Assembly (NCBI GenBank): GCA_963823665.1
Contig: CAWGMQ010000005.1
Location: 1-64,000 of the forward strand
DNA from: an uncultured Planctomycetota bacterium
Lineage (GTDB): Bacteria > Planctomycetota > Planctomycetia > Isosphaerales > Isosphaeraceae
Reading direction: 5' to 3'
Length of the DNA: 64,000 nt
Shown here: positions 571 to 49,029 of the stretch, piece by piece
Layout of the letters: each line of letters opens with the position of its first letter
How positions within the stretch are numbered: the first letter of the stretch is position 1
The notes under the pieces: model-generated
Seen by the model: the letters and a program-made list of their open reading frames with translations, nothing else
Databases searched by the model: none
What the model was told of the DNA's origin: nothing
Translations under genes and position numbers: made by a program

Positions 571-862
571 GGGATTCCAGACACCCATCCTTTTGTCACG
601 GTCCTCCACATCCATTCATTCGCGGCTCGCACGTTCAGCGCAAAACCACGGCCTCTGGTCATTGGGATTCCAGAGGGATTCCGGGATTCCAGGGGATTCC
701 AGACACCCATGCTTTTCTGACGGCTCTTCGCACCCATTCACTCGCCCTGGCACGTTCAGCGCAAAACCACGGCCTCTGGTCATTTGGAACGCGCCGAAGG
801 CAACGCGCTGCTTGCCAAAAGGTGGGTGTCTTAAATCCGGTGTCTTAAATCCCTAAATCCCC
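571..862 (+). repeat. ~155-bp TIR element family, copy A (partial copy 571-663 plus full copy ~693-862, with stuttered ends)
   Basis: Left end GGGATTCCAGACACCC, right end GGGTGTCTTAAATCCC, shared core GCAAAACCACGGCCTCTGGTCATT. The left motif is reiterated at 664-692 and the right motif at 839-862. Confidence 0.9.
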
Positions 863-973
863 GGCGCAACCTCGGCTGCGCGAACTCGGCATCAAGCTCA
901 CCGATCTCGAAAGACGTCGTCGGGGCCCAACTTAGCGCTATAGAACTAAGCGTCGTCCCGTTTCTTCTTCCGG

Positions 974-1975
974 TCACGCGACAAAATAGGGGGGCAGGTA
1001 GTTGACTTCGCCCGACGCGAGCGTGGCGAACAGGTCGCCGTCGGTGGCGGTTTGCGGCATGTCCTTGCGCGGAGGTGCAAGGGCGCCCGTGATCGGCTGG
1101 TTATCGGCTTGCATCTCTTGGACGTTGTTCCAGAGCGCCTTGGTGAGCTGCTTGAGGTCGTCCACTTCGAACGCTTCCAGGTCCGCTTTCTGATCTTTCT
1201 TCGACAAGTCGTCCCAGGTGGCTTTCACGCGCTCGGCGAAGGGGTCTTTCTTGATCGTCAGGAGGTTGAGGCCGGACACGTCTTCGCGCGGCACCGTGCC
1301 GGTGTCGCCGGCGATGGTAAGCTGCGTCGCTTCCAGGCCGACGATCGGCGTCACCGGCGCCGGTTCCACGGGAAACTCCACATCATTGGATTGGATTTGC
1401 CCGTTCGGATTGCAGATGTATACCTTGGACCAGCGGTGGTGTCCGTCGATGATGTACCGTTGGTTGTCGTAACTCGCCGTCATGACGGCATCGCCTGTCT
1501 CCACGCCGCCGCTCCGGTAGAGCGTGATGGCAGCCGGGTCTTTCAAGATCTTGAGCGTCTTGTCGACGTCAATCTCGTTCTGGGTCGGCAGCAGGTCTTT
1601 GACGTCGAGGTTCCGCAAAACCGACGGTGCCGCTTCATCGATCGTGCCCCCCAGGATCGCATCGTCGCGGAACTGCATGACAAACGCGTCGGAGTAATGC
1701 CTCTGGAAGGTGACACCATCTTCCGCGAGGTTGAGGTCGTATTTCAGGTCGTACACGAATTTGGGGTACGGGGACTCCATCATCTTCTCATACGCCGCCT
1801 TCACATCGGGATCAATCGACGGTTGGTCGGTGACCGTTCCTTGGAAGTGAATATCGACGGCGGGCGGGGTGGTTTGGCTCTCGAGTCGAAATTGCCACTG
1901 ATGCGCAACGCCCGTGACGGTCAACGTCGATGGGACAAGCCGGTGTTCCAGCGCCTCGAAACTCAGTACCGTCAT
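974..1975 (-). CDS. Putative secreted protein: planctomycete LEPRxLL-type N-terminus plus ParB/sulfiredoxin-like domain
   Basis: MTVLSFEALEHRLVPS N-terminus and YIIDGHHRW motif; 333 aa from ATG 1975 within the 424-aa ORF. Confidence 0.75.
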   Translation of the reverse strand: MTVLSFEALEHRLVPSTLTVTGVAHQWQFRLESQTTPPAVDIHFQGTVTDQPSIDPDVKAAYEKMMESPYPKFVYDLKYDLNLAEDGVTFQRHYSDAFVMQFRDDAILGGTIDEAAPSVLRNLDVKDLLPTQNEIDVDKTLKILKDPAAITLYRSGGVETGDAVMTASYDNQRYIIDGHHRWSKVYICNPNGQIQSNDVEFPVEPAPVTPIVGLEATQLTIAGDTGTVPREDVSGLNLLTIKKDPFAERVKATWDDLSKKDQKADLEAFEVDDLKQLTKALWNNVQEMQADNQPITGALAPPRKDMPQTATDGDLFATLASGEVNYLPPYFVA

Positions 1976-2384
1976 GAGAACCTCGAAAGTACGTATCGTG
2001 GATCGAGACTGAACCATTCGCGCCGAAGCCAACGCTGGCATCCCGCGACCGGCTTCCGCGCGCCTCGGGCCTCGACTCGAGCGAAGGCGGTGGCGACGAC
2101 ACGAGCGCTTCCTTGAACCGGCGCGTTCCCTCGCCCGCCGACACGGTTCACACCGCGGAACCACGAGGCTCGCCGTCGCCACCGGGTCATGGCTCGCCGG
2201 TCGCTTCGACTCCACCCAAACGTCGCGGTGAAACAATCTCGAAACCACGATGCACCACGCGAAACGGCGCTGTCAAGAAGATTCGCCAAAGAAAGAAGAT
2301 CGAGGAGAAAGAGCGGTCGGCCAGACACGGGGTGATCAGCTCCGACGTCGCAAACCACTTGCGAACGAGCGCCGGGGCAGCCGG

Positions 2385-2742
2385 CCGTCACGATGGAGAC
2401 GACAAGGTCTCCCAAGTTCCCGGGGAACCCTATTGATCATTCGCCATGTTCTCCGACCCCGGTCTGACCAGGCACGCTAGTGGGTCCAGGTGTCGCTAAT
2501 GCCCGGCACGGCCCCCGCGTCAGACAAGGACGAGGGCTCAGGACAAGAAGAGGAAATTTCGAGGCTCAATCGCACAGCGTTTGATCTCGCTGTCTACGCT
2601 TCGCAGTGAGAGTCGCGTCTCCCCACGCAAGACTTGCTTCCGCCGCTGGCCCGGCTCTGCCGGACGGGATTGGTTACCCGCAGGGTTCCACTAAAAGGTT
2701 TCACATTGGAATGATCCTCCTTTTCCGAGCTTCTTGGCGCAA
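2385..2742 (-). mobile_element. Group II intron remnant 1 (5' end and domain I only)
   Basis: Minus strand starts TTGCGCCAAGAAGCTCGGAAAAGGAGG. It contains GCAAGTCTTGCGTGGGG..GCGAAGCGTAGACAGC..TTGAGCCTCGAAA and GGGAACTTGGGAGACC, typical of IIB-type domain I, and is homologous to 8380-8634. No RT or DV follows. Confidence 0.85.
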
Positions 2743-3113
2743 TGTCTGACATCCCCCGCATCGAATCCGAAAGCGAGTTGCTTGATCAAGCCATGATCTT
2801 GGTCGAAGCCGACCATCGAGCTGCTGCCGCTGTAATTGCTGGCGGCGCGTTGGAGACCCACCTGCGATACTACGTGGACAAGCACAGCGTCGCGATTACC
2901 GGGGACGGGTCGATCTCGAAGTATAACAGCGCCGTCGGACAAGCCCGGAAAGCGAACCCAGCACTCTACTCGGCAAACGACGGGAAACTGGTCGAGAGTC
3001 GGGGCGGTTTGCGCAATGAAGCTGCGCATGAACCCGCGAAATTCAACCGGAGCAAGGATGAAATCAAGCGGACGATTGAAGGAATCCGCGAGTTCATACG
3101 GCGCACAGCGTAG
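2742..3113 (+). pseudogene. 5'-truncated paralogue of the HEPN protein at 4037-4705
   Basis: Aligns with the C-terminal ~120 aa of 4037-4705 (AVIAGGALETHL..SISKYNSAVGQARK..RNEAAH) and begins at the repeat stub. Confidence 0.8.
2743..2757 (+). repeat. Right-terminus stub of the ~155-bp element (5' exon of intron 1)
   Basis: TGTCTGACATCCCCC matches the right ends at 6388-6402 and 7236-7248. Confidence 0.75.
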
Positions 3114-3285
3114 CCAGGGCCGTTCGGACCGATTCGCACCGCGAAGGTAGCTTCCTACGCTAAGCCATCGGGGCCCCCGGTCCGCCAATTTTTCACGCCT
3201 CAAACCACGCGGGCCGCTGATCTTCTCACGAGGATCTTGCGGCCGATTCTTTGCCACGCGCAAATTGCCAGAGGGGGATTCTTCA

Positions 3286-3852
3286 ATGGGCGAGCCGAAA
3301 CCGCAACCGTCAAGGAGTCGGTTTGACGTGTCAATTCACGAAGCCGGACATGTCGTCGCTGCTGTCGTTCTGGGTTTGCAATTTGAGTCAGTCGACCTGG
3401 AGCATCACGCAGACCCGAAAACGGGTGGCACCTCCCTCGGAGGCTTTCGCTTCGGCGAAATTCGCTGGGATCAATTTCGTGGTAAAGGAATCGATGCCAT
3501 ACGGCGTCACCTCATCGTTGCGTATGCTGGCGTCGCCACTAAGCCCAGCGTTGAGGCCGCGCTCGATGCCTTGACGACTGACGGTCTGAAAGACGAGGAA
3601 CGTGCTAAGGAGTTAGTTGCGACGGCTGTTTACAGCGGTCCCGAGAAACACCGCGAAATACAAGCCACGCTGACCTCCAAAGACAAGGGCGCTCTTGCAG
3701 AAGCATTTCAATCCGCTTGGGAATTGATTAACCCCCGGGGCAAAATCGTGAGAGAGGTCGCGAAGGCGCTGCGCATGCGACATCGACTAACTTTCGGCGA
3801 GGCCGTTGCTATCGTCCATGATTGCGAAGCGAATCCGGACTTGAATTCCTAG
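3286..3852 (+). CDS. Small zinc metallopeptidase-like protein (HEAGH; stand-alone M41/FtsH-protease-like)
   Basis: SIHEAGHVVAAVVLG, downstream AYAG and C-terminal VAKAL..LT pattern; GAGGGG RBS upstream. Confidence 0.7.
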   Translation: MGEPKPQPSRSRFDVSIHEAGHVVAAVVLGLQFESVDLEHHADPKTGGTSLGGFRFGEIRWDQFRGKGIDAIRRHLIVAYAGVATKPSVEAALDALTTDGLKDEERAKELVATAVYSGPEKHREIQATLTSKDKGALAEAFQSAWELINPRGKIVREVAKALRMRHRLTFGEAVAIVHDCEANPDLNS

Positions 3853-3890
3853 CTCGTAGGGCGCCTATTAAGAGTCGAGCCATATTAGCC

Positions 3891-3925
3891 GGCCGCGCTG
3901 TCCATAGGGCGCGGCCATTCTTTTC
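3891..3925 (+). terminator. Probable intrinsic terminator
   Basis: GGCCGCGC-N10-GCGCGGCC stem followed by ATTCTTTTC. Confidence 0.55.
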
Positions 3926-4036
3926 ACCCCTTCTTCTTGCTCTGTAGGCTATGCTATCGGGGGTTGCGACCAGCCGACACCGGCATCTGATTAAGACTCC
4001 GATGGCAAGAGTGTAGCACCAGAAAGAGTTTGGTTC

Positions 4037-4705
4037 ATGACGCGACAACAGCTCCAATCCTTCTACGAGCAACTAATCGCGACCGCCGACTCGATGCCAT
4101 TCGAATTGAGCCTGGGAGTTCCAGTCTACAACCAGGCGTCGGCCCACGAATGGGCAACAGAGGCCGAGTCTGCGTTGGCGGCCGTGTTCCCCGAGTCGCA
4201 TCCCACCCGACAGGCTTGGGCTCGTATTCACAAGCATCCAAAAGCGAGATTCGTTGGCGAAGTCTTTGACCAGTTCATGGGAGCGTTTAAGGGGGCATAC
4301 AACCAAATCCGGGATAACAGGCTCGCCTCCCTGATGGACATCATCCGGCTGGAATCGGAGAGCGATTTTCTTGACCAGGCCACCGAACTGGTCGAGGCCG
4401 ACGCCCGCGCTGCTGGCGCTGTGATCGCCGGAGGCGTATTGGAGACTCACTTGAAAAACTACGTGGACAAACATGGCTTATCGTTCGCGGGAAGCGGGTC
4501 GATCTCCAAGTACAACAGCGCCGTCGGGCAAGCCCGAAAATCGAACCCAGGGCAGCTTTATTCGGTTAACGATGGCAAGCTGGTTGAGGCTTGGGGCGGC
4601 GATCGCAATGATGCAGCGCACGAACCGAGTTCGTTCGCGCGAACCAGGGCAGACGTGAAGCGGATGATCGAGGGAATCCGGGAGTTCATTGGGCGAACAG
4701 GATAG
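4037..4705 (+). CDS. HEPN-domain protein (DUF4145-like), putative RNase effector
   Basis: 222 aa; AGAVIAGGVLETHL helix and C-terminal R-x4-H motif (RNDAAH). Confidence 0.75.
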   Translation: MTRQQLQSFYEQLIATADSMPFELSLGVPVYNQASAHEWATEAESALAAVFPESHPTRQAWARIHKHPKARFVGEVFDQFMGAFKGAYNQIRDNRLASLMDIIRLESESDFLDQATELVEADARAAGAVIAGGVLETHLKNYVDKHGLSFAGSGSISKYNSAVGQARKSNPGQLYSVNDGKLVEAWGGDRNDAAHEPSSFARTRADVKRMIEGIREFIGRTG

Positions 4706-5031
4706 AGAGCACCAGCGAGACCGATTCGTCCCTCCGAAGCGCTAGCTTCCTAAGCTAAGACTGAGGGTTGTCGCCGCCAAAAACCAACCGATTGCGACGT
4801 CGCTCCCGCTCGCTGTTTAGGATCGCGTGGACGCGTCGGACTTCGTCGGCTTGAGCCGCTTTCATGCGCCGGAGGTGCTTCGGTCAGGAGTGTCGCGGCT
4901 TTCATCGATTCCGGCTCGGGATCGCAGTCGGATTCTTTTGGTTAGCTTTTACCGATTAACCCATTTATACTGGCTTAGTTAGATTCGCCTCTTCCAGGCG
5001 CCGCCGAAGTCTTCCAACGAAGCAAGATCCA

Positions 5032-6116
5032 ATGATGCAGTCCGTGGCACCCGGCATCCGCGCGGCCCGCTATCACGTCGTCCTATTTCAAGGAGGGGGC
5101 GATGGCCTCGACCGGCAGTCTGTGCGTGCTTTACACCTATTACTACGCAAGCATATTGTGACCGCGCCGAAAAACACCGAAATTGACATATGGATCGACT
5201 CCCCTGGCGGGGATGCGCACGCAACGTACAAGTTGTTTCTGGAGCTCCGGTACCGGTGTGAGAAATTGAGGGCAGTGATTCCCGACTACGCAAAGAGCGC
5301 AGCCACATTGTTGACGCTTGGCGTCGATGAAATCTACATGTCGCCGAGCGCCGAACTCGGACCTCTTGACGCTCAAATTAAGCACCCAGAAAAAGAGCGC
5401 GAAATCGTCTCCGCGCTCGACATTGCAGACTCACTCGACTCGCTGGCACAGGCGTCCTTCGTCATGGCGCAACGATACTGCAATTTCATGGTTGAGGTTC
5501 TGGATCTGCCGCGTTCAGAGGTTCTCGGCTCGGTTCTCGAGTACATGGCACAATTTATGCAGCCAATCGTCTCAAAACTTGACCCACATCGAATTCACCA
5601 GGCCACGAGCCTACTTGAGGTCGCAGGTGACTATGGAGTGCGGATGTTGGCGAGGCGAAATGTCCCTGCTGACAAAAAGCTGGGACCAAGAGGCGCAAGA
5701 GCTTGTGAACAAATTGGTTAAGGATTACAGCACGCACGGTTTCATCATCAGTCGCGAAGAGGCTTCGATAGTGCTAAACTTGCCGGTATCTCCCGCGGAA
5801 GATCACCCGAGATGGTTGAACATTAAGGAGACTCCACGACGAATTTGAAAAGAACCACCGGTCTATCGTGAAAATCTTACAGGATTCGGAGCTAAAATCG
5901 CCCGCCCCGTCCCCGGAGGCCGACCATGAGCGAACACGATCAAACAAACCCCGAGCCGGAAGTGCCGGGCCGTCTGACGGCGCCCCGCAAGTCCGAAGAC
6001 AAAGAGGCAATCGAAATTCTCAGACGTCTAAGGCGGGAGGAGCGGGCGCTGACAAACGCGATCGTTGCCAAGACCGGAAGACTGCTGAAGTATGGAGGGC
6101 CCTCGGCGGTGAATAA
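5032..6116 (+). CDS. SDH-family ClpP-fold serine protease, with two apparent +1 frameshifts (~5683, ~5830)
   Basis: IDSPGGD, VIPDYAKSAATLLTLG, ELGPLDAQ motifs. The C-terminal part LVKDYSTHGFIISREEA continues in the next frame (ORF 5318-5848) and then probably in ORF 5868-6116. Confidence 0.8.
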
Positions 6117-6222
6117 TGCCGATAGTCAAACTCGCTGGCCGCGCGTCCGTTGGAGGCGGACGGCGCTTCAGCACCGAATCCCTATTGTGGCTCCCTTCGC
6201 TTTCTGGACGCCATTGACCTAA
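5926..6222 (+). CDS. Small hypothetical protein overlapping the protease 3' end
   Basis: GGAGG RBS before the ATG; charged helical segment KEAIEILRRLRREERAL. Confidence 0.4.
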   Translation: MSEHDQTNPEPEVPGRLTAPRKSEDKEAIEILRRLRREERALTNAIVAKTGRLLKYGGPSAVNNADSQTRWPRVRWRRTALQHRIPIVAPFAFWTPLT

Positions 6223-6244
6223 ACCGTTCTGATGGCGTTCGTAT

Positions 6245-6402
6245 GGGAATCCAGACACCCACCCGTTTCGTCACGCCCCCCGGCATCCATGCATTGGCGG
6301 CCCACACGTTCGGCAGAGAACCACGGCACGACCGCTGGTCATTTCGACAAAAAGAAGGCGCGAGTCCGACGCTGCGCAGAAGGTGGGTGTCTGACATCCC
6401 CC
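6245..6402 (+). repeat. ~155-bp TIR element, copy B (more diverged)
   Basis: GGGAATCCAGACACCC ... GGTGGGTGTCTGACATCCCCC with a homologous core. Confidence 0.9.
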
Positions 6403-6432
6403 TGGCCAAGTCAGACGAGATCACGCAGTCCA

Positions 6433-6482
6433 CGTGCCATCTGGCACGCACACTTTGACAGCATGGCAGTAGTGACTACGCT
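6433..6482 (+). promoter_or_regulatory. Putative promoter/operator of the antitoxin gene
   Basis: Palindrome CGTGCCA-TC-TGGCACG (6433-6448), TTGACA (6455-6460), then N16 and TACGCT, 7 nt before the ATG. Confidence 0.5.
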
Positions 6483-6489
6483 GAGGATC

Positions 6490-6948
6490 ATGAGTGTGCT
6501 CGACATCCGAAAGCCCGGCCGAAGGCAACGTGTCTCCCTTAATACTTTGGGCTCCAGTTTGGGATTGAAGGTGTCCCGGACTGATCAGCTCATTAACCAG
6601 GTCCAGCACGGTCTGTCGTTCAAGGCCCTGGTCTCTCTCGAGGCAATCAGCGGTATGACCGCCTCGGAAATCGCCTCGATCATCGGGATTCCCGCACGAA
6701 CATTGGCCCGACGTCGGGTCGCCGGCAAGCTGGCGCCCGATGAGTCGGAGCGCCTGCTCCGGATAGCCGCGGTTTTTGAGAAAGCGGTGGGTCTGTTCGA
6801 GGGCGACGTGCCTGCCGCCCTCGCGTGGCTGAGAGCTCCCAAGAAGACCTTGGGCCAGCAGAGCCCCTGGACCTTCGCCCGTAGCGAACTGGGGGCTCGA
6901 GAAGTTCTCGATCTGATTGGCCGCTTGGAGTACGGAGTTTTCACTTGA
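6490..6948 (+). CDS. Xre/MbcA/ParS-family antitoxin (RES-Xre TA system)
   Basis: GIPARTLARR..LAPDESERLLRIA..AWL..P...LG..P..ELGAREVLDLIGRLEYGVF. Confidence 0.9.
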   Translation: MSVLDIRKPGRRQRVSLNTLGSSLGLKVSRTDQLINQVQHGLSFKALVSLEAISGMTASEIASIIGIPARTLARRRVAGKLAPDESERLLRIAAVFEKAVGLFEGDVPAALAWLRAPKKTLGQQSPWTFARSELGAREVLDLIGRLEYGVFT

Positions 6949-7050
6949 TCGTCTAATTACCTCGTGAATCCTCGCCATGCAGACTTTCCTGAGCTTCAGG
7001 TTGGTAAACCATCCCGCTTCCGTTTCGACCCTCGGTTGACCGGCAAATGA
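6945..7050 (+). pseudogene. RES toxin remnant (almost entirely deleted)
   Basis: SNYLVNPRHADFPELQVGKPSRFRFDPRLTGK* is a typical RES-toxin C-terminus and directly follows the antitoxin stop. Confidence 0.8.
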
Positions 7051-7097
7051 TAGACGCGACCGAGGAAGAGGCGTCGCAAACATCGGCGATAGCATCG

Positions 7098-7248
7098 GGG
7101 ATTCCAGACACCCGTCCTATCGGCACGGTCCCCCGCATCCATTCATTCGCGGCTCGCACATTCGGCGCAAAACCACGGCCTCTGGTCATTTCGAACACGC
7201 AGAAGGCCAGCGCCCGACGCTCGGCAAACGATGGGTGTCTGACATCCC
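7098..7248 (+). repeat. ~155-bp TIR element, copy C
   Basis: GGGATTCCAGACACCC ... ACGATGGGTGTCTGACATCCC. Confidence 0.9.
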
Positions 7249-7461
7249 TTACATAAGGTTGCGGAAAGTACAGATATGAGAAAGATAATCCATTACCCTC
7301 ACTAGAGGTGTGCCTCCTGTGCCAGATGAGCTGCTATCTGTCCATGGATGTGAGGAGTTCCAGCCACACGTCTACAATTTGCTACATTGCTTACTGTGAG
7401 CCTTTCCATGATGACTGACACCAACTCGGCAGCGTACGATCGAACGAGGGGATTATGTCTC

Positions 7462-8091
7462 ATGACACCTAGGGTGCGAGATGCGGTGCAGTCGGCCCAA
7501 CCGAGGCGGCTTAATCTCGGCGATGCAATCGTTCTCGTGGCAATGACCGCCATCGGTTTTGGCCTGGCCAAGCCCGTCATCAATCGGTGGGATAACAGAT
7601 ACAATACCCCGGCCAAGATCCTCGCCGACTTGGCCACACGCGGCGTCTTCTTCGCCCCGATCCACATACTTTACTGGCCGATCACGGCCTCGCCTGTCCT
7701 ACTGAGCTGGACTCTCGCCGTCGGCGGCCTCAGCCTCCGACAGCCCCGGCCGCCGCTCCATCGCCTCCTCCGGCGTCCGGGAACTGTGGCCTGTCTAGCG
7801 GCTGCTACAGCATTGGCGTGCGAGATCGTAGTGGCCGTCCTTCTGTACCTGATGGCCGTCGTCGCAGGCATCACCCTGGGTTTCGACCTTCGGAATAATC
7901 ACAGCTACTTGAAAGCATATTACTTATTGATAGCGGCGCTTGGGTTCGCCATAGCAGCGGCTTGGGCGATCCTGATGCTCGCGAGGCGATGGCGAGCCGA
8001 GCCGAGTTGGATTGACCGTAGCGGAAGAGCCCTTGGCCTGTGCTGGATCGCTCTCATTCCGTTCTCATTCTGGATGGCCATGCTCAACTGA
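7462..8091 (+). CDS. Hypothetical multi-pass membrane protein
   Basis: About 5 hydrophobic segments; RRLNLGDAIVLVA N-terminus and WRAEPSWIDRSGRALG C-terminal motif; start uncertain (7408 or 7462). Confidence 0.75.
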   Translation: MTPRVRDAVQSAQPRRLNLGDAIVLVAMTAIGFGLAKPVINRWDNRYNTPAKILADLATRGVFFAPIHILYWPITASPVLLSWTLAVGGLSLRQPRPPLHRLLRRPGTVACLAAATALACEIVVAVLLYLMAVVAGITLGFDLRNNHSYLKAYYLLIAALGFAIAAAWAILMLARRWRAEPSWIDRSGRALGLCWIALIPFSFWMAMLN

Positions 8092-8107
8092 GAGGAGCCG
8101 AGGAGCC

Positions 8108-8634
8108 GCTGGGTAGGTCTGGGTGGTTGACCACCCAGACCCCCCGCAGATCCGTGCTCGCGCAATTAACGCACACGGCTCCTCATTTCAAACCTTCGCT
8201 GCTCGACGGTACACCGAGTGGACAACGATCGCTGCTGGGAGCGGATACCGCTCCAGCAGACGATACATTCGCTCCCAGGCGACTTCGCCGCCGCGGTGGC
8301 GTCGGCCAAGCCATTTCCTCCAGGATGCATAAACCTGGAGTTGGTAAGCCGGAACCTCGGCCGCCAGTCACGCCGGAAATGGCAGGGTCTCTCAGGTTCC
8401 CGAGCGACCCTCATGTCCCTACGCCCTGTTCTCGGACCCAGGTAGGACCGAACACGCCAGGCCGTTGCGGCGTGTCGACGCGGCCCCCGCTTGTGTCTAC
8501 AACGGAGGCTCCCACGATGAGTATTTCGGGGCTCGATAGCATGGCATGGGGACTCGCTGTCTACGCTGCGCAGTGAGGGTCACCCCTCCCCACGCAAGAC
8601 TTGCTTCCGGCTGCCGGCCAGGCTCTGCCGGGCG
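8108..8634 (-). mobile_element. Group II intron remnant 2: partial domain I, last ~50 codons of the maturase, DV and DVI
   Basis: Minus strand DV GAGCCGTGTGCGTTAATTGCGCGAGCACGGATC and DVI GGGGTCTGGGTGGTCAACCACCCAGACCTACCC. These are preceded by WRKWLGRRHRGGEVAWERMYRLLERYPLPAAIVVHSVY (domain X end). RT core deleted. Confidence 0.9.
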
Positions 8635-8740
8635 TCATTCGCGGCACGCAAGTTCGGCGCAAAACCACAGCCTCTGGTCATTTCCAACACGCAGAAGGCG
8701 AGTGCCCGACGCTCGGCAACAGGTCGGTGTCTGACATTTC
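8635..8740 (+). repeat. ~155-bp TIR element, copy D (right two-thirds)
   Basis: TCATTCGCGG..GGCGCAAAACCACAGCCTCTGGTCATTTC..GGTGTCTGACATTTC. A likely left-end variant GAGGAGCC x2 lies at 8092-8107 on the other side of intron 2. Confidence 0.85.
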
Positions 8741-9212
8741 TTTGACGTGCCGTGCCCCCTTTCTTTCATTCGTGGGATTCGTCAGATTCGTGGTTCCGCT
8801 TCCCCGCTCAGCGCCACACAACACGACGATCCGACAGAGCCCCGCACTCCGCTTCGGCCTTTCGCCTTCGGACAGCCACCACTTGGCTCGGCCCATCGTT
8901 CGCGCTCGGTGCTGCGTAATCTCAGCCTCCCCTGTCACGTGACTATCTGGCGGCAGCCGCGCACGCCATGCTACCCGCCGATCATTCCGATTGCCGCCGG
9001 CCGAAGCCAGCCGGACTTTCCGCTGCGAACCGACTGCCGCCGAGCGGAAGTACAGGCGGGCCGAAAACAACGGGCGCGCATGGGCTGTGGGTCTGGTGAA
9101 ATGATGGAAATCCCGATGCGCCACATCGATTGACCGTGCGTCTCGACCCTCAACAGGGACCCGGTTCGGCGTCCTTACGGGTAGAATCGTACACGAAGGG
9201 GGGAGCAAAGCC

Positions 9213-9286: not shown

Positions 9287-9567
9287 GGGACGGAAACCGG
9301 GACGCGATTAGTATTTAGCTCGATCGGCCCTGGTATTCCCTGCTATTATACCAAGAACTGCTAGACCGGTTGCGCTTGAGCATGGAGCGAGGACGACCCT
9401 ACGGCGGCGACGACTGGGCACGGCGAACGGTAAAAGAGCTTGGCTTGGAGCACACCGTCCGCCCGGAGGGACGGCCGCGTAAGGTAGGCCAGCCCGGGAC
9501 CGATCCAGCTCGCTAAATTCGCGCAATACTCGAACACAAAACTGTCCCCGTCCCTGTTTCGGTCCCC
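9287..9567 (+). mobile_element. Internally deleted REP-associated tyrosine (Y1/HUH) transposase element
   Basis: Ends GGGACGGAAACCGGGACG and the reverse complement of CGTCCCTGTTTCGGTCCC match at 16/18. 9352-9516 encodes LDRLRLSMERGRPYGGDDWARRTVKELGLEHTVRPEGRPRK, typical of RAYT C-termini. Confidence 0.7.
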
Positions 9568-40508: not shown

Positions 40509-43500
40509 AGACCTCGGCTTGCTTGACACGCATACCGCCACGATCGACTGGGGCGATGGGACGTCGGTCACTATCAACGACTCGTCGACGTTCGTGAACG
40601 CCCAGGGCCAAACGGTTCCGGACCTCACCGAACCGACGGCAAGCTCACCCGGAACGATCACCATTGCACATCTCTACGACGATTCGAGTGCGTATTCCCA
40701 GGATCAGCCGATCCCGCTGCAGGCGACCCTGACCGTGGCCGACGATCACGGCGGGACGGTCTCCGACGCGTTCCAGGTGACCGTGCTGGACCTGACTGCG
40801 CCGTCGAGCAGCGTCGCTTCCTTGCCGCAGTATACGACGACGCCGGATTTCACGGTGAGCTGGTCCGGAACTGACAATGCGGGCGGCTCGGGAATCGCGT
40901 CGTACGACGTCTACGCCTCGGTCAACGGGGGCGCGTACACGCTGTGGCAGGCAAATACGACGGCGACCTCCGCGACTTACCCGGGCCAGCCAAACAGCAG
41001 CTACGCTTTTTACAGCGTGGCGACGGACGAGGCCGGGAACATGCAGGCAACGCCCGCGGCGGCCCAGTCGAGCACTACGGTGGTCCTCTCGCCGCCGACG
41101 AGCAGCGTTGCCGCTCTGCCGGCGACGACGATCAACACGACATTCCCGGTGAGCTGGTCCGGCTCCGGCAGCCCTGGCCTGGCCCACTTCGATGTCTACG
41201 TCTCCGACAACGGCGGTCCGTTTGCCCCGTTTGTTACCGACACCACGGCGACCTCGGCCGAGTTCACGGGCCAGGTCGGGCATACTTACGGCTTCTACAG
41301 CCTGGCCACGGACACCCTGGGACACACCCAGACGACCCCGGCGGGCGCCCAGGCCAGCACTGCGGTGGTCGCGCCCGTCGCAATCACGGCGAACGATCCC
41401 AGCGTGCCGCTGGGTCAACCCATATCGTTCCAGGTGACGGTGACGGGGGGCGCGGGCCAGGTAACGCCGACGGGCGAGGTGACGCTCGAGGCCGACGGCT
41501 TGGTCCTTTCTGATACCGGACTGAGCGACGGAGTTGCAAACTTCGCGGACATCTCGAGCCTGGAGCTTGGTGTCGGCACCACAACCGTGACCGTGCTGTA
41601 CGCCGGCGACGGTGTTTACCCGGCCGCATCCGCGAGCACGATCCAGATCGTGACCGAGGCGGTCACGAAAACGACGCTTGCGAGTTCCGACTCCACGGTG
41701 GCGTACGGTTCGAGTATCGTCTTCACGGCCACCGTCTCGACGGGCATCGCCGGGCTCAACGCGACCGGCTCGGTCACGTTCTTCGATGACGGCGTGAGCT
41801 TTGGCACCAGTGCAGTGGTCGACGGCGTGGCAACAGTCTGGGTAGGGTGCCTGACCGCCGGCGGCCATTCGATCACGGCCGCTTTCAACGACCCAAGCGG
41901 CACGTTCCAGGGAAGCACCGCGGCGGCGGTGACGCAGCTTGTGACGTTCCCGGGCACTCCGGCGGACGGCGACGTCTCGCTCTACGTGCCGACCGACTTC
42001 CTGGCGCAGCCGGGCTCGACCGTCACGATCCCCGTCGACCTGATGGTGACTGACCCGAATGCACTCGCCGCCGGACTGGGCGGCTTCACCGTGCCGATCG
42101 CGTATGATCCCACGATTCTCTCGAACCCAACGGTCACGCTCGGCTCCTACCTGAGCACTCCACTGAACGTGACGGCCGACAGCGCACCTTTCGTGCTGAC
42201 GGCCGACACGAGCACGGCCGGCGAGGTGATCTTGAGCGCCGCGTCGAATCTGGGGACCTTGCCGATTCCGGCCGATACCCTGGTGGAGATCGGCGAGATC
42301 ACGTTCACCGTCAGTTCCGGAGCTCCGAAAAATCCGACGGTCCTCAACGTGCAGCAATCATCCGGCTCGACCGAGCTGGAAGTTTGGGACGCCAAAGGTG
42401 ATTCCGTTGCACTGGCACCGTCGGTCACGAATCTCCCGACCGATGCAATCGACGGTGTGCTGTGGATCGGCCAGGAGACACCGCTCGTCGTGTGGCCTGC
42501 CCCCACGGCCATCACGTATGGCACGGCGCTCGGCGCCGCAGAGCTCGATGCGCTGGCCAGCGTGGCCGGTACCTTCACTTACACGCCGGCTCTGGGCACA
42601 GTTCTCTCGCCCGGGAACGATCAGAGCCTGTCGGTGAGCTTCACGCCGGACGACACCACCGACTACACGACGGCGTCGATGACTGTCCCGCTCGACGTGT
42701 TGCAGGCGAATACCGCGCTGGGCGGCCTCACAGCGTCACAAGCGATCTGGAACGGCACCGCATCGATCAACCTGGGCGGCACGATCACGAGCAACAGCGA
42801 TCTGACCGCTCCCGGCGACGTCTCGGTCACCGTCGACGGCATCACCCAGACGGCCGCCATCGAGCCCGGTGGCTCGTTCAGCACCACGTTCAATACGCAG
42901 GCGATCCCCGCGTCGGCGGCGCCGTATACCATCACATACACTTACGCCGGAAACACGGATTTCACGGCGGTGTCTGACGAATCAACTTCTCTGACGGTCA
43001 TCGCGGCCGCGATCACGCCTGTTTCGCCCAATCCGACAAACACGCCGGTTTCGAGCGTGACGGTGACGCTGGCTGACTCGATCACGACGACCGCGCTCAC
43101 CGCGGCCGATCTGAGCCTGACCGATGACGGCGGGCCCAATCTTGTCAACGGCGTGATCTCGTTGTATTCGACTTCGAGCGACACTTACGTGATCACCAGC
43201 CTGTCTGGCCTGAATCCGAGCGACGGACTCTACACGCTGACCTTGAACGGGGCCGGACTGACGGACCAGGCAGGCACCCCGATCTCCGGGACGCTCTCGA
43301 CCTCGTGGCTCCTGGACACGACCCCGCCAACCAGCACGGTCAGCTCGCTGCCGGAGCAGACCACGTCCACGAGCTTCACCGTACCGGTGACCAGCAATGA
43401 CCCAACCGGGCCGAATGGGAGCACACCGTCAGGCGTCGCTTCGATCGCGATCTACGACTCGGAGGACAGCGGACCGTACACGCTCTTCGCGACCGTGACA

Positions 43501-46500
43501 CCCGCAAATCCCTCTGCTCTCTTCACGGGCCAGGCCGGCCACATTTACGGGTTCTATAGCATCGCAACCGACAACGCGGGCAACGTCCAGGCCACGCCGC
43601 CCGGAGCCGAACAGACGATCGCGATCTTGCAGCCGCTTTCCGTGACTTCGATTTCGGCGGTCGTGCCTGACCCCCGGAATTTAGATGTTTCGAGCTTGAA
43701 TGTCGACCTGAGCCTTGCCGTGGCCCCAGGCGGTTTCGACTGGCAAGCTCTGACCCTCACCGATAACGGTGGGCCCAACCTGATCACGAGCGCGGTCGGC
43801 AGCAAAGAACTTGCGATGGGCAATACCTACGTGATAACCGAACTGTCAGGACTGACTCAAGCGGAGGGTGAGTACACGCTGACAGTCAACGCCGCCGACA
43901 TCACGGATCAGTATGGCAATCCCGGAAGTGGCACGATGTCCGTGATGTGGCTGATGGACACGACGACGCCCACAAGCACGGTCAATTCGTTGCCGGCGCA
44001 GACCGCGTCCACGAGCTTTAACGTATCGGTGACCAGCAGCGACCCGACCGGGTCGAACGGGAGCACACCCTCGGGCGTCGCTTCCATCGCGATCTACGAC
44101 TCGGAAGACGGCGGGGCGTACTCACTGTTCACGACCGTGACGCCCGCAAGTTCTTCTGCTCTCTTCACTGGCCAGGCCGGCCACAGCTACGGGTTCTACA
44201 GCGTTGCAACCGACAACGCAGGCAACGTCCAGGCCACGCCGACCGCGGCCCAGCAAACCGTCCAGATCCTTTCAAATGTGTTCGTAACCTCGATCGCCGC
44301 GGTCAGCCCCAACCCACGAAACACACCGGTCTCGACCGTCGCCGTCACGTTCAGCACACCGGTCAATCCCAGTACCTTCAGCGCCAGCACACTCACCCTG
44401 ACCGACAACGGCAACGCAGTTGCGATCACCAGCGCCGTAAGTCTCAGCCTCGTCTCGGGCAACACGTATGACATCGATGGCCTGGCTGGGTTCACGACGG
44501 CCGAAGGGGCCTACAACCTGACCGTCAACGCATCGGCGATCAACGACACATACGGCAACGCCGGCACCGGCTCGCTGTCGACCTCATGGCTGATGGACAT
44601 TACGCCGCCCACAAGCACGGTCAGCTCGCTGCCGGCCGAGACCACATCCACGAGCTTTAACGTGGCGGTGACCAGCAATGACCCGACCGGGTCGAACGGG
44701 AGCACACCCTCGGGCGTCGCTTCCATCGCGATCTACGACTCGGAAGACGGCGGGGCGTACACTCGGTTTGCAACCGTCACGCAGGCAAGTCCTGCTGCTC
44801 TCTTCACCGGCCAGGCCGGCCACACTTACGGGTTCTACAGCATCGCGACTGACAGCGCAGGGAACGTCCAGGCCACGCCGGCCACGGCACAGGAAACCGT
44901 CCAGATCCTCCAACCTGTGTTCGTAACCTCGATCGCCGCGGTCACACCCAACCCGCGAAACAGGCCCGTGTCGACTGTCGCCGTCACGTTCAGCATACCC
45001 GTCAATCCCAGCACTTTCAGTGCCAGCGCGCTCACCCTGACCGACAACAGCAACCCGGTCGCGATCACCAGCCCCGTCTCTCTCAGCCTCGTCTCGGGCA
45101 ACACGTATGACATCGATGGCCTGGCTGGGTTCACGACGGCCGAAGGGGCCTACAACCTGACCGTCAACGCATCGGGCATCGAGGACACATACGGCAACGC
45201 CGGCACCGGCTCGCTGTCGACCTCTTGGCTGATGGATACGACACCACCCACAAGCACGGTCAGCTCGCTGCCGGCCGAGACCACGTCCACGAACTTTAAC
45301 GTGTCGGTGACCAGCAATGACCCAACTGGGTCGAACGCGAGCACACCCTCGGGCGTCGCTTCCATCGCGATCTACGACTCGGACGACGGCGGGGTGTACA
45401 CGCGGTTTGCAACGGTCACGCAGGCAAGTTCCGCTGCTCTCTTCACGGGCCAGGCCGGCCACACCTACGGCTTCTACAGCGTTGCGACCGACGGCGCAGG
45501 CAACAGGCAGGCCACGCCGGCCACGGCACAGGAAACCGTCCAGATCCTCCAACCTGTGGCCGTGACTTCGATCGCCGCGGTCTCTCCCAACACGCGGAAT
45601 ACACCGGTCTCGACCGTCGCTGTCACGTTCAGCATACCGGTCAATCCCAGCACGTTCAGTGCCAGCACGCTCACCCTGACCGACAACGGCAACGCAGTTG
45701 CGATCACCAGCGCCGTAAGTCTCAGCCTCGTCTCGGGCAACGCGTATGACATCAATGGCCTCGTTGGGCTGACAACGGCCGAAGGGAACTACAGCCTGAC
45801 GGTCAATGCATCGGCGATCGACGACACATACGGCAACGCCGGCACCGGCTCGATGTCGACCTCTTGGCTGATGGACACGACTCCGCCCACAAGCACGGTC
45901 ACCTCGCTGCCGCCCGAGACCACATCCACGAGCTTTAACGTGTCGGTGACCAGCAGTGACCCAACCGGCTCGAACGAGAGCACACCCTCTGGCGTCGCTT
46001 CCATCTCGATCTTCGACTCCGAGGACGGCGGCGCGTACACTCGGTTTGCAACCGTTACGCAGGCAAGTTCCGCTGCTTTCTTCACGGGCCAGGCCGGCCA
46101 CACGTACGGGTTCTACAGCATCGCGACCGACAACGCGGGCAACGTCCAGGCCACGCCGGTGACGGCACAGGAAACCGTGCAGATCCTCCAACCTGTGGCC
46201 GTAACCTCGATCGCCGCGGTCTCTCCCAACATGCGGAATACACCGGTCTCGACCGTCGCTGTCACGTTCAGCATACCGGTCAATCCCAGCACGTTCAGTG
46301 CCAGCACGCTCACCCTGACCGACAACGGCAACGCAGTTGCGATCACCAGCGCCGTAAGTCTCAGCCTCGTCTCGGGCAGCACGTACGACATCAATGGCCT
46401 GGCTGGGTTGACCACGGCCGAAGGGACCTACAACCTGACCGTCAACGCATCGGGCATCGAGGACACATACGGCAACCTCGGCACCGGCTCGGTGTCGACC

Positions 46501-49029
46501 TCCTGGCTGATGGACACGACCCCGCCCACAAGCATGGTCAACTCGCTACCGGCCGAGACCACATCCACGAGCTTTAACGTGTCGGTGACCAGCAATGACC
46601 CGACCGGGTCGAACGCGAGCACACCCTCGGGCGTCGCTTCCATCGCGATCTACGACTCGGAAGACGGCAGGGCGTACACGCGGTTTGCAACGGTCACGCA
46701 GGCAAGTTCCGCTGCTCTCTTCACGGGCCAGGCCGGCCACACTTACGCGTTCTACAGCATCGCGACCGACAACGCGGGCAACGTCCAGGCCACGCCGGTG
46801 ACGGCACAGGAAACCGTGCAGATCCTCCAACCTGTGGCCGCAACCTCGATCGCCGCGGTCTCTCCCAACACGCGGAATACACCGGTCTCGACCGTCGCTG
46901 TCACGTTCAGCATACCGGTCAATCCCAGCACGTTCAGTGCCAGCACGCTCACCCTGACCGACAACGGCAACGCAGTTGCGATCACCAGCGCCGTAAGTCT
47001 CAGCCTCGTCTCGGGCAGCACATATGACATCAATGGCCTGGCTGGGCTGACCGCGGCCGAAGGGTCCTACAGACTGACGGTCAATGCATCGGCGATCGAC
47101 GACACATACGGCAACGCCGGCACTGGCTCGCTGTCGAACTCTTGGCTGATGGACACGACCTCGCCCACAAGCACGGTCAACTCGCTGCCGCCCGAGACCA
47201 CATCCACGAGCTTTAACGTGTCGGTGACCAGCAATGACCCAACTGGGTCGAACGCGAGCACACCCTCGGGCGTCGCTTCCATCGCGATCTACGACTCGGA
47301 GGACGGCGGGTCGTACTCACTGTTCACGACCGTGACACCCGCAAGTCCCTCCGCTCTCTTCACCGGCCAGGCCGGCCACACCTACGGGTTCTTCAGCATC
47401 GCGACCGACAACGCGGGCAACGTCCAACCGACGCCGACCGCAGCCGAGCAAACCGTCCAGATCATCTCGCCGCTGAGTATCACGTCGATCGCGTCAGTCT
47501 CACCCAATCCCAGGAACACCGCCGTATCCAGCATCGACGTCACGTTCAGCGAACCGATCAAGCTCAGCACATTTACTGATTCCAGCGTCACGCTCACCGA
47601 CAACAGCGGCGGAAACCTCATCACGAGCGTGGTCACGTTTGCGTCCGTCTCGGGCTCGACCTACCAGATCAACGGCCTCAGCAGCCTCACCGCGAACAAT
47701 GGTAATTACACCTTAAGCGTGAACGCCGCGGGCATCGACGACCAGAACGGTAACCCGGGCTCGGGCAGCCTGTCGACCTCGTGGCTGATGGACACAACGC
47801 CCCCCACAAGCACGGTCAATTTGCTCCCGAAACAGGGCACGAGCCTCACGTTCGCGGTCACCGTCACTGGCTCGGACGACGGCTCGCCCGCTTCGGGCGT
47901 GAAGTCGTATAACATCTACTCAAGCACCAACGCCGGCGCCTGGTCCCTGTGGACGACCGTTCCGGCCTCCAACCCAACGGCCAACTTCACGGGCCAGAGC
48001 AGCACGACCTATGCCTTTTACAGCACGGCGACTGACAACGCCGGAAATACCCAGGCTTACAATCCGCTGATTGAGGCCAGTACCTATCTGCCAGACCTGA
48101 TCCCGCCGGTCACCGTGGTCGACGGCACGACCGGCACCAACCCGAGCACGGTCTGTACCGCGACCGGCACGTTCACGCTCAACCTCACCGGGACCGATCC
48201 CGGCGGCGGTGTCTTGACCTATTTCGAGGTCTTCGCGTCCGTCGATTCTGGACCTTATGAAATCGTCGGACCGGCGATTCCCGCGGGACCGGCCAATAGC
48301 GCGGGGATTGTCCAGGCGACCATTCCGTACCAGGGCATCACGGACGGCGCCCAGCACACCTACGCGTTTTACAGCATCGGGCTGGACAGCGGGGGCCATC
48401 CGCAAGCGGCACCAGCGACTGCCAATCTGACGCTTACAGAGACATTCGCGACGCCGACGCAGCTCCAGACGACGGCCTTGATCGTCGAGGACGGAGCGGT
48501 CGAGCGGTCGTTTATCCGTTACCTGCAAGTCGACTTCAACGAGTCAGACAGCCAGTCCGGCGGCGAGCTCACCCAGATCGTCAATTCACTGAAGACCGCA
48601 TCGCCCGAGATCCAACTCTATCAGTATGACTTGAACGACGACGCGTCGAGCAAGACAGCCGTCTCGCTCTCGGGAGTCACTGCCCTGGTGATCGACCACG
48701 CGATCGAGCTCGACTTCGGTGCGAACGGCCTGGGCGGCAGCCCCACGACCACGGCCGCCGACGGCTATTACGAGATCGATATCAAGCTTCCGAGTGGCAC
48801 GACCGACGTGCACAACTTCTACCGGCTGCTCGGCGACGTCACCGGTGATGGAACGGTGGACGAGAACGACCTGAATGAAATCGCCGCTGAAATCAATCTG
48901 TCAAACGCGGCAGGGTTCGCGCCCCTGGGCGCGGACGTGACCGGCGAGGGCACCATAACAGCGCTCGACCTGACGCTGGCGACCAGGGCGAAGGGGCACA
49001 AACTGAAGTCGGACCTCTCGCTTGGGTGA
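40411..49029 (+). CDS. Giant protein segment 3 (PKD, Fn3/Ig-like, Big_3-type, cohesin-like, 213-aa tandem repeats, C-terminal dockerin)
   Basis: In-frame sequence extends upstream to ~40289 (VAGTPSLAIVAAGHTYADVGTY). Dockerin GDVTGDGTVDENDL..ADVTGEGTITALD. Confidence 0.9.
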   Translation: MTVANAPPTFVAVPPASQQIDQGGTVTLSATFEDLGLLDTHTATIDWGDGTSVTINDSSTFVNAQGQTVPDLTEPTASSPGTITIAHLYDDSSAYSQDQPIPLQATLTVADDHGGTVSDAFQVTVLDLTAPSSSVASLPQYTTTPDFTVSWSGTDNAGGSGIASYDVYASVNGGAYTLWQANTTATSATYPGQPNSSYAFYSVATDEAGNMQATPAAAQSSTTVVLSPPTSSVAALPATTINTTFPVSWSGSGSPGLAHFDVYVSDNGGPFAPFVTDTTATSAEFTGQVGHTYGFYSLATDTLGHTQTTPAGAQASTAVVAPVAITANDPSVPLGQPISFQVTVTGGAGQVTPTGEVTLEADGLVLSDTGLSDGVANFADISSLELGVGTTTVTVLYAGDGVYPAASASTIQIVTEAVTKTTLASSDSTVAYGSSIVFTATVSTGIAGLNATGSVTFFDDGVSFGTSAVVDGVATVWVGCLTAGGHSITAAFNDPSGTFQGSTAAAVTQLVTFPGTPADGDVSLYVPTDFLAQPGSTVTIPVDLMVTDPNALAAGLGGFTVPIAYDPTILSNPTVTLGSYLSTPLNVTADSAPFVLTADTSTAGEVILSAASNLGTLPIPADTLVEIGEITFTVSSGAPKNPTVLNVQQSSGSTELEVWDAKGDSVALAPSVTNLPTDAIDGVLWIGQETPLVVWPAPTAITYGTALGAAELDALASVAGTFTYTPALGTVLSPGNDQSLSVSFTPDDTTDYTTASMTVPLDVLQANTALGGLTASQAIWNGTASINLGGTITSNSDLTAPGDVSVTVDGITQTAAIEPGGSFSTTFNTQAIPASAAPYTITYTYAGNTDFTAVSDESTSLTVIAAAITPVSPNPTNTPVSSVTVTLADSITTTALTAADLSLTDDGGPNLVNGVISLYSTSSDTYVITSLSGLNPSDGLYTLTLNGAGLTDQAGTPISGTLSTSWLLDTTPPTSTVSSLPEQTTSTSFTVPVTSNDPTGPNGSTPSGVASIAIYDSEDSGPYTLFATVTPANPSALFTGQAGHIYGFYSIATDNAGNVQATPPGAEQTIAILQPLSVTSISAVVPDPRNLDVSSLNVDLSLAVAPGGFDWQALTLTDNGGPNLITSAVGSKELAMGNTYVITELSGLTQAEGEYTLTVNAADITDQYGNPGSGTMSVMWLMDTTTPTSTVNSLPAQTASTSFNVSVTSSDPTGSNGSTPSGVASIAIYDSEDGGAYSLFTTVTPASSSALFTGQAGHSYGFYSVATDNAGNVQATPTAAQQTVQILSNVFVTSIAAVSPNPRNTPVSTVAVTFSTPVNPSTFSASTLTLTDNGNAVAITSAVSLSLVSGNTYDIDGLAGFTTAEGAYNLTVNASAINDTYGNAGTGSLSTSWLMDITPPTSTVSSLPAETTSTSFNVAVTSNDPTGSNGSTPSGVASIAIYDSEDGGAYTRFATVTQASPAALFTGQAGHTYGFYSIATDSAGNVQATPATAQETVQILQPVFVTSIAAVTPNPRNRPVSTVAVTFSIPVNPSTFSASALTLTDNSNPVAITSPVSLSLVSGNTYDIDGLAGFTTAEGAYNLTVNASGIEDTYGNAGTGSLSTSWLMDTTPPTSTVSSLPAETTSTNFNVSVTSNDPTGSNASTPSGVASIAIYDSDDGGVYTRFATVTQASSAALFTGQAGHTYGFYSVATDGAGNRQATPATAQETVQILQPVAVTSIAAVSPNTRNTPVSTVAVTFSIPVNPSTFSASTLTLTDNGNAVAITSAVSLSLVSGNAYDINGLVGLTTAEGNYSLTVNASAIDDTYGNAGTGSMSTSWLMDTTPPTSTVTSLPPETTSTSFNVSVTSSDPTGSNESTPSGVASISIFDSEDGGAYTRFATVTQASSAAFFTGQAGHTYGFYSIATDNAGNVQATPVTAQETVQILQPVAVTSIAAVSPNMRNTPVSTVAVTFSIPVNPSTFSASTLTLTDNGNAVAITSAVSLSLVSGSTYDINGLAGLTTAEGTYNLTVNASGIEDTYGNLGTGSVSTSWLMDTTPPTSMVNSLPAETTSTSFNVSVTSNDPTGSNASTPSGVASIAIYDSEDGRAYTRFATVTQASSAALFTGQAGHTYAFYSIATDNAGNVQATPVTAQETVQILQPVAATSIAAVSPNTRNTPVSTVAVTFSIPVNPSTFSASTLTLTDNGNAVAITSAVSLSLVSGSTYDINGLAGLTAAEGSYRLTVNASAIDDTYGNAGTGSLSNSWLMDTTSPTSTVNSLPPETTSTSFNVSVTSNDPTGSNASTPSGVASIAIYDSEDGGSYSLFTTVTPASPSALFTGQAGHTYGFFSIATDNAGNVQPTPTAAEQTVQIISPLSITSIASVSPNPRNTAVSSIDVTFSEPIKLSTFTDSSVTLTDNSGGNLITSVVTFASVSGSTYQINGLSSLTANNGNYTLSVNAAGIDDQNGNPGSGSLSTSWLMDTTPPTSTVNLLPKQGTSLTFAVTVTGSDDGSPASGVKSYNIYSSTNAGAWSLWTTVPASNPTANFTGQSSTTYAFYSTATDNAGNTQAYNPLIEASTYLPDLIPPVTVVDGTTGTNPSTVCTATGTFTLNLTGTDPGGGVLTYFEVFASVDSGPYEIVGPAIPAGPANSAGIVQATIPYQGITDGAQHTYAFYSIGLDSGGHPQAAPATANLTLTETFATPTQLQTTALIVEDGAVERSFIRYLQVDFNESDSQSGGELTQIVNSLKTASPEIQLYQYDLNDDASSKTAVSLSGVTALVIDHAIELDFGANGLGGSPTTTAADGYYEIDIKLPSGTTDVHNFYRLLGDVTGDGTVDENDLNEIAAEINLSNAAGFAPLGADVTGEGTITALDLTLATRAKGHKLKSDLSLG
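43000..48050 (+). repeat. Tandem array of ~639-bp (213-aa) repeats, about 8 units
   Basis: WL(M/L)DTTPPTSTV recurs at ~43310, 43950, 44590, 45230, 45870, 46505, 47145 and 47785. The shadow ORFs recur with an exact 639-nt period. Confidence 0.95.

Follow-up and report, generated by a model that had tools for sequence, protein, structure and literature searches.

Specialisation of mobile elements on repeated DNA is already known, both for the group II intron RmInt2, which homes into the inverted repeats of an IS, and for IIC introns and several ISs that use repeated motifs. RmInt2 is an endonuclease-minus (En-minus) class D intron of Sinorhizobium meliloti GR4, and its targets are both inverted repeats of ISRm17 (PMC4615759). 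IIC and IIC-attC introns recognize a repeated, mostly intergenic DNA motif through a short EBS1 and a DNA hairpin (PMC4424553, PMC7923331). IS621, ISPa11, ISPpu9/10 and IS1397 are DNA transposons or recombinases with a fixed insertion point in canonical REPs, small repeats linked to Y1 transposases (PMC1525189). In TIRtrons, GGGGWSAS and its variants flank the genes of TIRYT (TIR-associated Y1 tyrosine transposase), and dimers and clusters occur as well (PMC3733652; subclass 2.1, PMC6006769). The phrase "group II intron" is absent from the accessible text of PMC3733652 and PMC6006769, and our literature search, with subscription papers largely outside its scope, turned up no report of TIRYT repeats as targets of group II introns.

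We analyzed a window of 64,000 nt from contig CAWGMQ010000005.1 (GCA_963823665.1) of an uncultured Isosphaeraceae bacterium (source genome G000). It carries part of a group II intron, here called family A, joined to the end of a repeat of about 150 nt. With RmInt2 this system would share homing by IIB-type EBS1/2/3 pairing into the inverted repeats of a mobile element, a relaxed EBS2, several copies and head-to-tail insertions; unlike RmInt2, described as one intron in one strain on one IS, the lineage is present in 61/121 genomes of the host's order, appears retargeted among variants of a transposase end, and comprises two sister families (A and B) on one repeat end from opposite strands (PMC4615759). 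As in class E/IIE introns, the endonuclease is missing, EBS1 dominates, the ribozyme is compact (733 nt without the ORF), a candidate alpha-prime may lie in a terminal loop and the D5 loop of family B, though not that predicted for family A, has 5 nt; unlike them, the intron has the boundaries UUGCG...CCCGGC rather than GUGYG...AY, a D5 loop of 7 nt in family A (predicted by folding) and many ORF-less copies (PMC3753933). The preference for a repeated, mostly intergenic motif recalls IIC and IIC-attC introns, whereas a full EBS1/EBS2/EBS3 set, and no hairpin upstream of family-A sites, takes the place of short EBS1 and hairpin (PMC4424553, PMC7923331). The fixed insertion point in a small Y1-transposase-linked repeat is likewise that of IS621 and the other ISs named above, but here a retroelement would use TIR motifs (PMC1525189). 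Many of the intron's relatives target exactly such TIRYT terminal motifs, whereas the repeat end in the window, GGTGTCTG, has two mismatches to the published GGGGWSAS, and no transposase was found flanked by it (PMC3733652, PMC6006769).

On the minus strand the junction of 5' exon and intron reads GGGGGATGTCAGACA|TTGCGCC (2757-2743|2742), as a sequence-only reading of the window had proposed. That reading counted the intron from 2385; alignment to a complete 733-nt copy (G000:C11:703037) instead runs through intron nt 365 and stops at 2378. Contigs of related introns from four public sequencing runs span 2378-2742 and then continue as intact intron past 2378; the runs contained at most 0.11 of the words, and the contigs, which represent introns of relatives and stop short of the host flanks, contain no spliced joint. 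The window copy is a dead 5' fragment and cannot home. It holds neither an ORF or reverse transcriptase (RT) nor D5/D6, both of which domains, catalytic D5 and branch-point D6, are present in the complete copy. An Rfam search gave two D1-D4 matches within the window, one in this fragment (group-II-D1D4-6, RF02005, 2447-2673, minus strand, 96.5 bits, E 6e-26, gathering threshold 49) and one in the domain I of a second intron (8427-8641, 122.7 bits), and no RF00029 (D5/D6) match anywhere in it. Folded alone, the fragment gave a z of 0.56.

The window intron is a class-E-like group II intron with IIB-like EBS pairing. We use the label "class E" provisionally, on the basis of sequence motifs together with the endonuclease-minus RT, the compactness and the putative alpha-prime and D5 features. 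The UUGCG...CCCGGC boundaries hold throughout the sub-lineage, and the GUGYG...AY of IIB-like introns was not found in it; a UUGCG start has been reported for another intron (PMC7923331). The features of the window are collected in Table 1.

Table 1. Positions of the intron, repeat and neighbouring features within the 64,000-nt window.
Feature	Position	Strand	Basis or remark
5' fragment of a family-A group II intron, 365 nt (D1, D2, start of D3)	2378..2742	-	alignment, Rfam, related contigs
EBS3 G; first base of the 3' exon predicted to be C	2454..2454	-	covariation
Probable alpha-prime, loop of the stem following the hairpin of EBS1; alpha, its partner, at about 2645-2652	2483..2490	-	weak covariation
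EBS1 UGUCUG, Id3 terminal loop (about 2519-2529)	2521..2526	-	Rfam placement and covariation
EBS2 UUUCCU	2551..2556	-	register test z 8.5, 65 types
5' exon, outer 15 nt of repeat terminus	2743..2757	-	identical to 6388-6402
IBS1 (2743-2748) and IBS2 (2750-2755), in 5' exon	2743..2757	-	registers from covariation
Hypothetical gene, 3' half, truncated on its 5' side where it meets the repeat end; paralogous to 4037-4705	2758..3113	+	identity, direct repeat D15
Two more repeat copies, one partial, one divergent	571..853	+	
Empty repeat of about 150 nt, inverted ends (target family)	6245..6402	+	
Empty repeat of about 150 nt, reference copy	7098..7249	+	
Second intron, 5'-truncated, with a domain I of family-B type (EBS1 AGACAC) and its own D5/D6 end	8108..8641	-	
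Internally deleted TIRYT element: terminal motif, transposase C-terminal remnant (9355-9504), inward-facing second motif	9292..9560	+	

For the pairing between intron and exon, searches of the source genome, across the order and by RT yielded 100 intron 5' ends, which were reduced to 65 types (55 UUGCG-type and 10 GUGCG-type). The EBS1 columns (intron nt 217-222, window 2526-2521) form Watson-Crick pairs with exon positions -1 to -6 in 62/65, 65/65, 60/65, 64/64, 59/65 and 58/65 types, and all four Watson-Crick pair types occur in each column (89-100% of types paired). Mean EBS1 pairing was 5.72/6 against 4.0 after shuffling, with 0/1000 shuffles as high; because the types are mutually related, the z values given here are not probabilities. 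The sequence-only reading had paired UGUCUG(A) with (T)CAGACA. Six of these pairs are borne out by covariation, the seventh (A with the T at exon -7) shows none, and the group-II-D1D4 model, proposed there as a check, assigns UGUCUG to the loop at the tip of the Id3 hairpin.

The segment AUUUCCU (2557-2551) had been proposed as EBS2, which is right as to location but shifted by two bases: one of seven registers stands out, with the first base after CGAAA opposite exon -8 (z 8.5), and the register originally proposed (exon -10) scores z 1.7. In the favoured register the window copy forms three Watson-Crick pairs, two G-U pairs and one mismatch. EBS2 pairing is weak across the types, averaging 2.75/6 Watson-Crick pairs, and EBS2 is described as dispensable for in vitro self-splicing of IIE/IIF introns (PMC3753933). 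EBS3 (intron nt 289), absent from the sequence-only reading, pairs with exon +1 in 34/38 types. A loop complementary to the putative alpha was present in 38 variants (5.07 versus 4.91 when shuffled, 6/500 shuffles as high), and the column test for alpha/alpha-prime failed. The EBS positions, target preference and fragment boundaries given here are assignments by sequence comparison.

The target repeat has inverted ends and is able to fold end to end. Four empty copies and one fused to the second intron lie in the first 9 kb of the window, where the end motif has 8 matches versus 0.28 expected. Genome-wide, the end core CAGACACCCA occurs 194 times versus 8 times for a reversed control, and the repeat body was found in 5/121 genomes of the host's order. 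An identity with integron attC sites was rejected: the ends are without RYYYAAC...GTTRRRY cores, and TIGR02249 stayed below the cut-off in G000 and its congener G029. Tandem duplications of repeat ends are common, with units of about 15-30 nt. Neighbouring repeats up to 6 kb apart are co-oriented in 28/29 pairs (window 571-8745; L088, L089, L104, L521), and the end motif faces outward from the repeat and so inward on the DNA between repeats, like that of the complete TIRtron at G000:C10:639991. Genes adjoining the repeats show no orientation bias (28 co-oriented, 25 opposed, from crude gene calls). The co-oriented repeats may possibly form cassette-like arrays. An Xre/ParS-type antitoxin gene (6232-6948, plus strand) lies between two repeats, an SDH/ClpP-like protease is encoded at 5032-5721 (plus strand), and 43170-48072 holds a large protein gene with seven to ten tandem 639-nt coding repeats.

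All 15 bases of the exon match a terminus (6388-6402) of an empty repeat. At the intron nothing of the repeat survives beyond these outer 15 nt, and the window copy has no 3' exon left, so for this locus we infer both the remainder of the repeat and an insertion into a complete one. With no repeat body left there, a family that targets the repeat could also have left this one copy ectopically, at a look-alike site in the coding gene 2758-3113. This gene has 70% identity to its paralogue over 55% of the latter, and the exon is in codon register with the paralogue at GAC ATC (Asp-Ile), with Asp in 34/39 homologues. However, Ser and Pro, the residues that the exon specifies if read as coding sequence, occur in none of the homologues (0/39 Ser, 0/39 Pro), which have Ile, Val, Leu or Ala there, so the exon is better explained as repeat DNA than as coding DNA. 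The 15/15 match to a repeat end and a repeat copy interrupting another gene of G000, a TIRYT gene (G000:C8:1768807, L113), which marks the repeat as mobile, also speak against an ectopic event, which we regard as highly unlikely. The proposal that the intron sits in the right terminus of the element thus stands as regards the repeat end, though not as regards the right side only, since the family uses both termini.

Insertion into a repeat end is the rule for family A. Copies were counted through pattern and BLAST searches and 31 regions, and the copy numbers are lower bounds; four short hits without a 5' end (C4:1830018, C4:802077, C3:487777, C5:1532444) and the L073 match, which is not an intron, were left out of the tally. 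In G000, 10/15 family-A 5' ends follow CAGACA in repeat-end context; three of the other five differ by 1-2 bases, one is rearranged, and one has changed in both EBS1 and exon (GGACGC/GCGTCC). In the congener G029, with 18 family-A hits, CAGACA in the same context precedes 10 of the 12 parsed 5' ends. At the other side, the 3' ends at C11:703770 and C6:916235 (G000) continue into the repeat and that at G029 C5:3425733 enters its right terminus, while one A-type 3' end that carries an RT remnant (C5:1646676) leads into another sequence. Empty EBS-compatible sites number 163 versus 18 for the reversed control. Specialised homing into the repeat family, as the sequence-only reading had suggested, is supported by these counts, and both termini are used.

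The repeat folds end to end, and its inverted-repeat ends are of a kind handled by single-strand transposases, so the intron might read a folded single-stranded hairpin, as class C and IIC-attC introns do, with EBS pairing secondary. Against this, EBS1 (the full 6 bp) and EBS2 covary in an IIB-like manner, insertions are found at isolated ends too, and the repeat contributes no more than its outermost 13-15 nt to the 5' exon of family A, which leaves no upstream hairpin. We consider hairpin recognition most improbable and retain recognition through EBS pairing.

Family-A copies long enough for judgement are ORF-less, and no intact A-type RT ORF was found in G000. Many remnants break at about intron nt 110, right after one and the same short motif (G000:C3:915433, C5:1516721, C10:1134203, C10:1212078; G029:C5:3423275). 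At G000:C8:520311 (L067/L078) a domain I with EBS1 GGACGC lies in a TIRYT terminal motif and the 3' end leads into the repeat, a chimera that suggests recombination between copies.

The sister family B shares 498 identical positions with family A between the ORF-less 732- and 733-nt forms, in which domain 4 is similarly short. Its EBS1 is AGACAC, and 20/21 of its 5' ends follow TGGGTGTCT, that is, the same repeat end on the strand opposite to that of family A; insertions at isolated repeat ends occur as well. The second intron of the window is fused to a partial repeat (8635-8745). Many family-B copies are ORF-less, and full-length RTs are found at C6:911608 and C6:1320046. The RT matches TIGR04416 (326.7 bits) and has the RVT_1 domain only, with no HNH or endonuclease domain; in a quick RT tree, family B falls within a group of introns with the target CTGACA|C (support 97). 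Six other genomes contain complete introns of 739-750 nt that lack an ORF (L121, L128, L133, L135, L137, L142).

Tandem family-B introns with a 24-34 nt target duplicate between them were observed (G000:C10:1458546-1460036; C3:193892-194658), and in one public contig an intron 3' end is joined straight to a 5' end. In addition, an HNH-encoding intron, which we take to be CL-like, is nested in domain 6 of family-A and family-B introns at one fixed site. It was seen at G000:C6:913775-916201 (L088) and seven more places, with eight identical-scoring 3' ends in G000, and one copy (C8:1396090) has a rearranged context.

The sequence-only reading had proposed to list the 5' exons of full-length relatives. 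Distant relatives do insert at other sequences, an outcome which that reading had named as refuting; EBS1 nevertheless changes in step with the exon and the targets are mostly variants of one transposase-end motif, which extends the homing idea rather than opposing it. The closest named RT relatives are from planctomycetes, many of them Isosphaeraceae. The 29 relative loci, three of them (L122-L124) unparsed, gave 26 parsed best hits, one per genome, 21 of which target a TIR-like hexamer. A relaxed TIR hexamer class, defined post hoc and including the window's own hexamer, covers 34/55 UUGCG types and 0/10 GUGCG types against a background of 0.7%; it leaves out 21/55, some clearly unrelated, and the published strict consensus fits 14/55. 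Six different hexamers, all variants of the one motif, are used in the same register, and the 3' exon continues with CC in 14/17 matching types with a known 3' exon. As the types are related, these counts overstate independence; on a quick, unfinished tree the TIR-target label requires six changes.

In 22/29 loci a terminal motif precedes the TIRYT-like gene by about 53 nt. The 13-mer target of L006, L126, L128 and L129 is the exact reverse complement of this upstream motif and is found at 10/69 TIRYT loci, and 8/100 intron 5' ends, a figure without a background control, lie within 1.2 kb of a TIRYT homologue. Natural TIRYT flanks include GGTGTCAG and GGGGTCTG. The window itself holds a TIRYT remnant (tblastn E 9e-16) whose flanking motifs match TIRYT flanks elsewhere. 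None of 30 TIRYT loci (2 unparsed) in G000 and G029, genomes that are 92% and 84% complete, has the end of this repeat as its terminal motif, none of 11 Y1_Tnp loci is flanked by the same repeat ends, and an order-wide Y1_Tnp search yielded mostly short IS200-type genes, apparently. The 120 metagenome loci with the 17-mer end, mostly chance matches, included one with an RT and one with a weak match to the repeat; none had a TIRYT. As no TIRYT was found flanked by this repeat's end, we link the two through the likeness of their motifs, and lean towards the view that the repeat ends are a variant of the TIRYT terminal motif and the repeat of TIRYT origin.

Alternatively, EBS sequences may drift without selection, with lineages that happen to match an abundant repeat multiplying and dominating the sample, and the repeat may be an independent MITE. 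Several members of the clade have unrelated targets, no cognate TIRYT turned up at the G000 and G029 loci, and the repeat body is confined to so few genomes of the order, all of which would fit. It is harder to reconcile with six hexamers that are variants of one motif in one register, mostly with CC next, and with family B, L189 and L209, which reached such motifs in other registers. We find drift rather unlikely; it would alter the evolutionary reading and leaves the homing mechanism as it is. The distant introns L189 and L209 lie in or just after GGGGTCAG on the other strand, possibly by independent retargeting; downstream of each, no more than 1.2 kb away, is a TIRYT homologue. A subclade (L187, L188, L190, L192) has EBS1 CUUUUU and an A-run target.

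In the history that we favour, a repeat end would first have been joined to the gene, an order that we infer, and an endonuclease-minus family-A intron would then have reverse-spliced into the terminus of the repeat, between CAGACA and CCC. The site would be recognized by six EBS1-IBS1 pairs, a relaxed EBS2-IBS2 pairing and EBS3-IBS3, with a homing chemistry that presumably follows RmInt1 and RmInt2. By analogy with class D En-minus introns, priming may take place at the replication fork and the use of both inverted ends may be an advantage (PMC4615759). With two similar ends and more than 100 end motifs in the genome, the repeat offers the intron, on either strand, a target that is renewable and lies mostly between genes. 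Because the judgeable family-A copies are ORF-less, they most likely move with a protein acting in trans, for which the intact family-B RT is the probable candidate; use of a related protein in trans by ORF-less copies has a basis in PMC4424553. Everything of the intron past nt 365 would later have been deleted, together with the remaining repeat sequence and the 5' half of the adjoining gene; family B would have been retargeted onto this repeat end from the other strand. We assign a probability of about 0.85 to the explanation as a whole, namely insertion of a family-A intron into a repeat terminus through EBS pairing, later deletion and a protein in trans.

A wider reading, which we offer tentatively and at slightly less than even odds, is that the sub-lineage is a hyperparasite of TIRYT. 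Repeated EBS changes would track terminal motifs, ORF-less mini-introns of about 740 nt would have moved largely in trans, two families would share one end from opposite strands here, and the HNH intron would home into their domain 6; the introns may exploit cassette arrays built by the transposase, with the clusters of co-oriented repeats as their junctions.

Transposase-end repeats of this kind would add a new target class for specialised group II introns, beside terminators, attC sites and IS repeats. Introns without an ORF are described as rare in bacteria (PMC4424553), in contrast to the many ORF-less copies found here. With its naturally varied EBS/target pairs, this single ribozyme scaffold forms a test set for the evolution of retargeting, and also for the need for EBS2 in IIE homing, a question left open in PMC3753933. 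Within the genome, the introns mark the used sites of a little-studied repeat family to the base.
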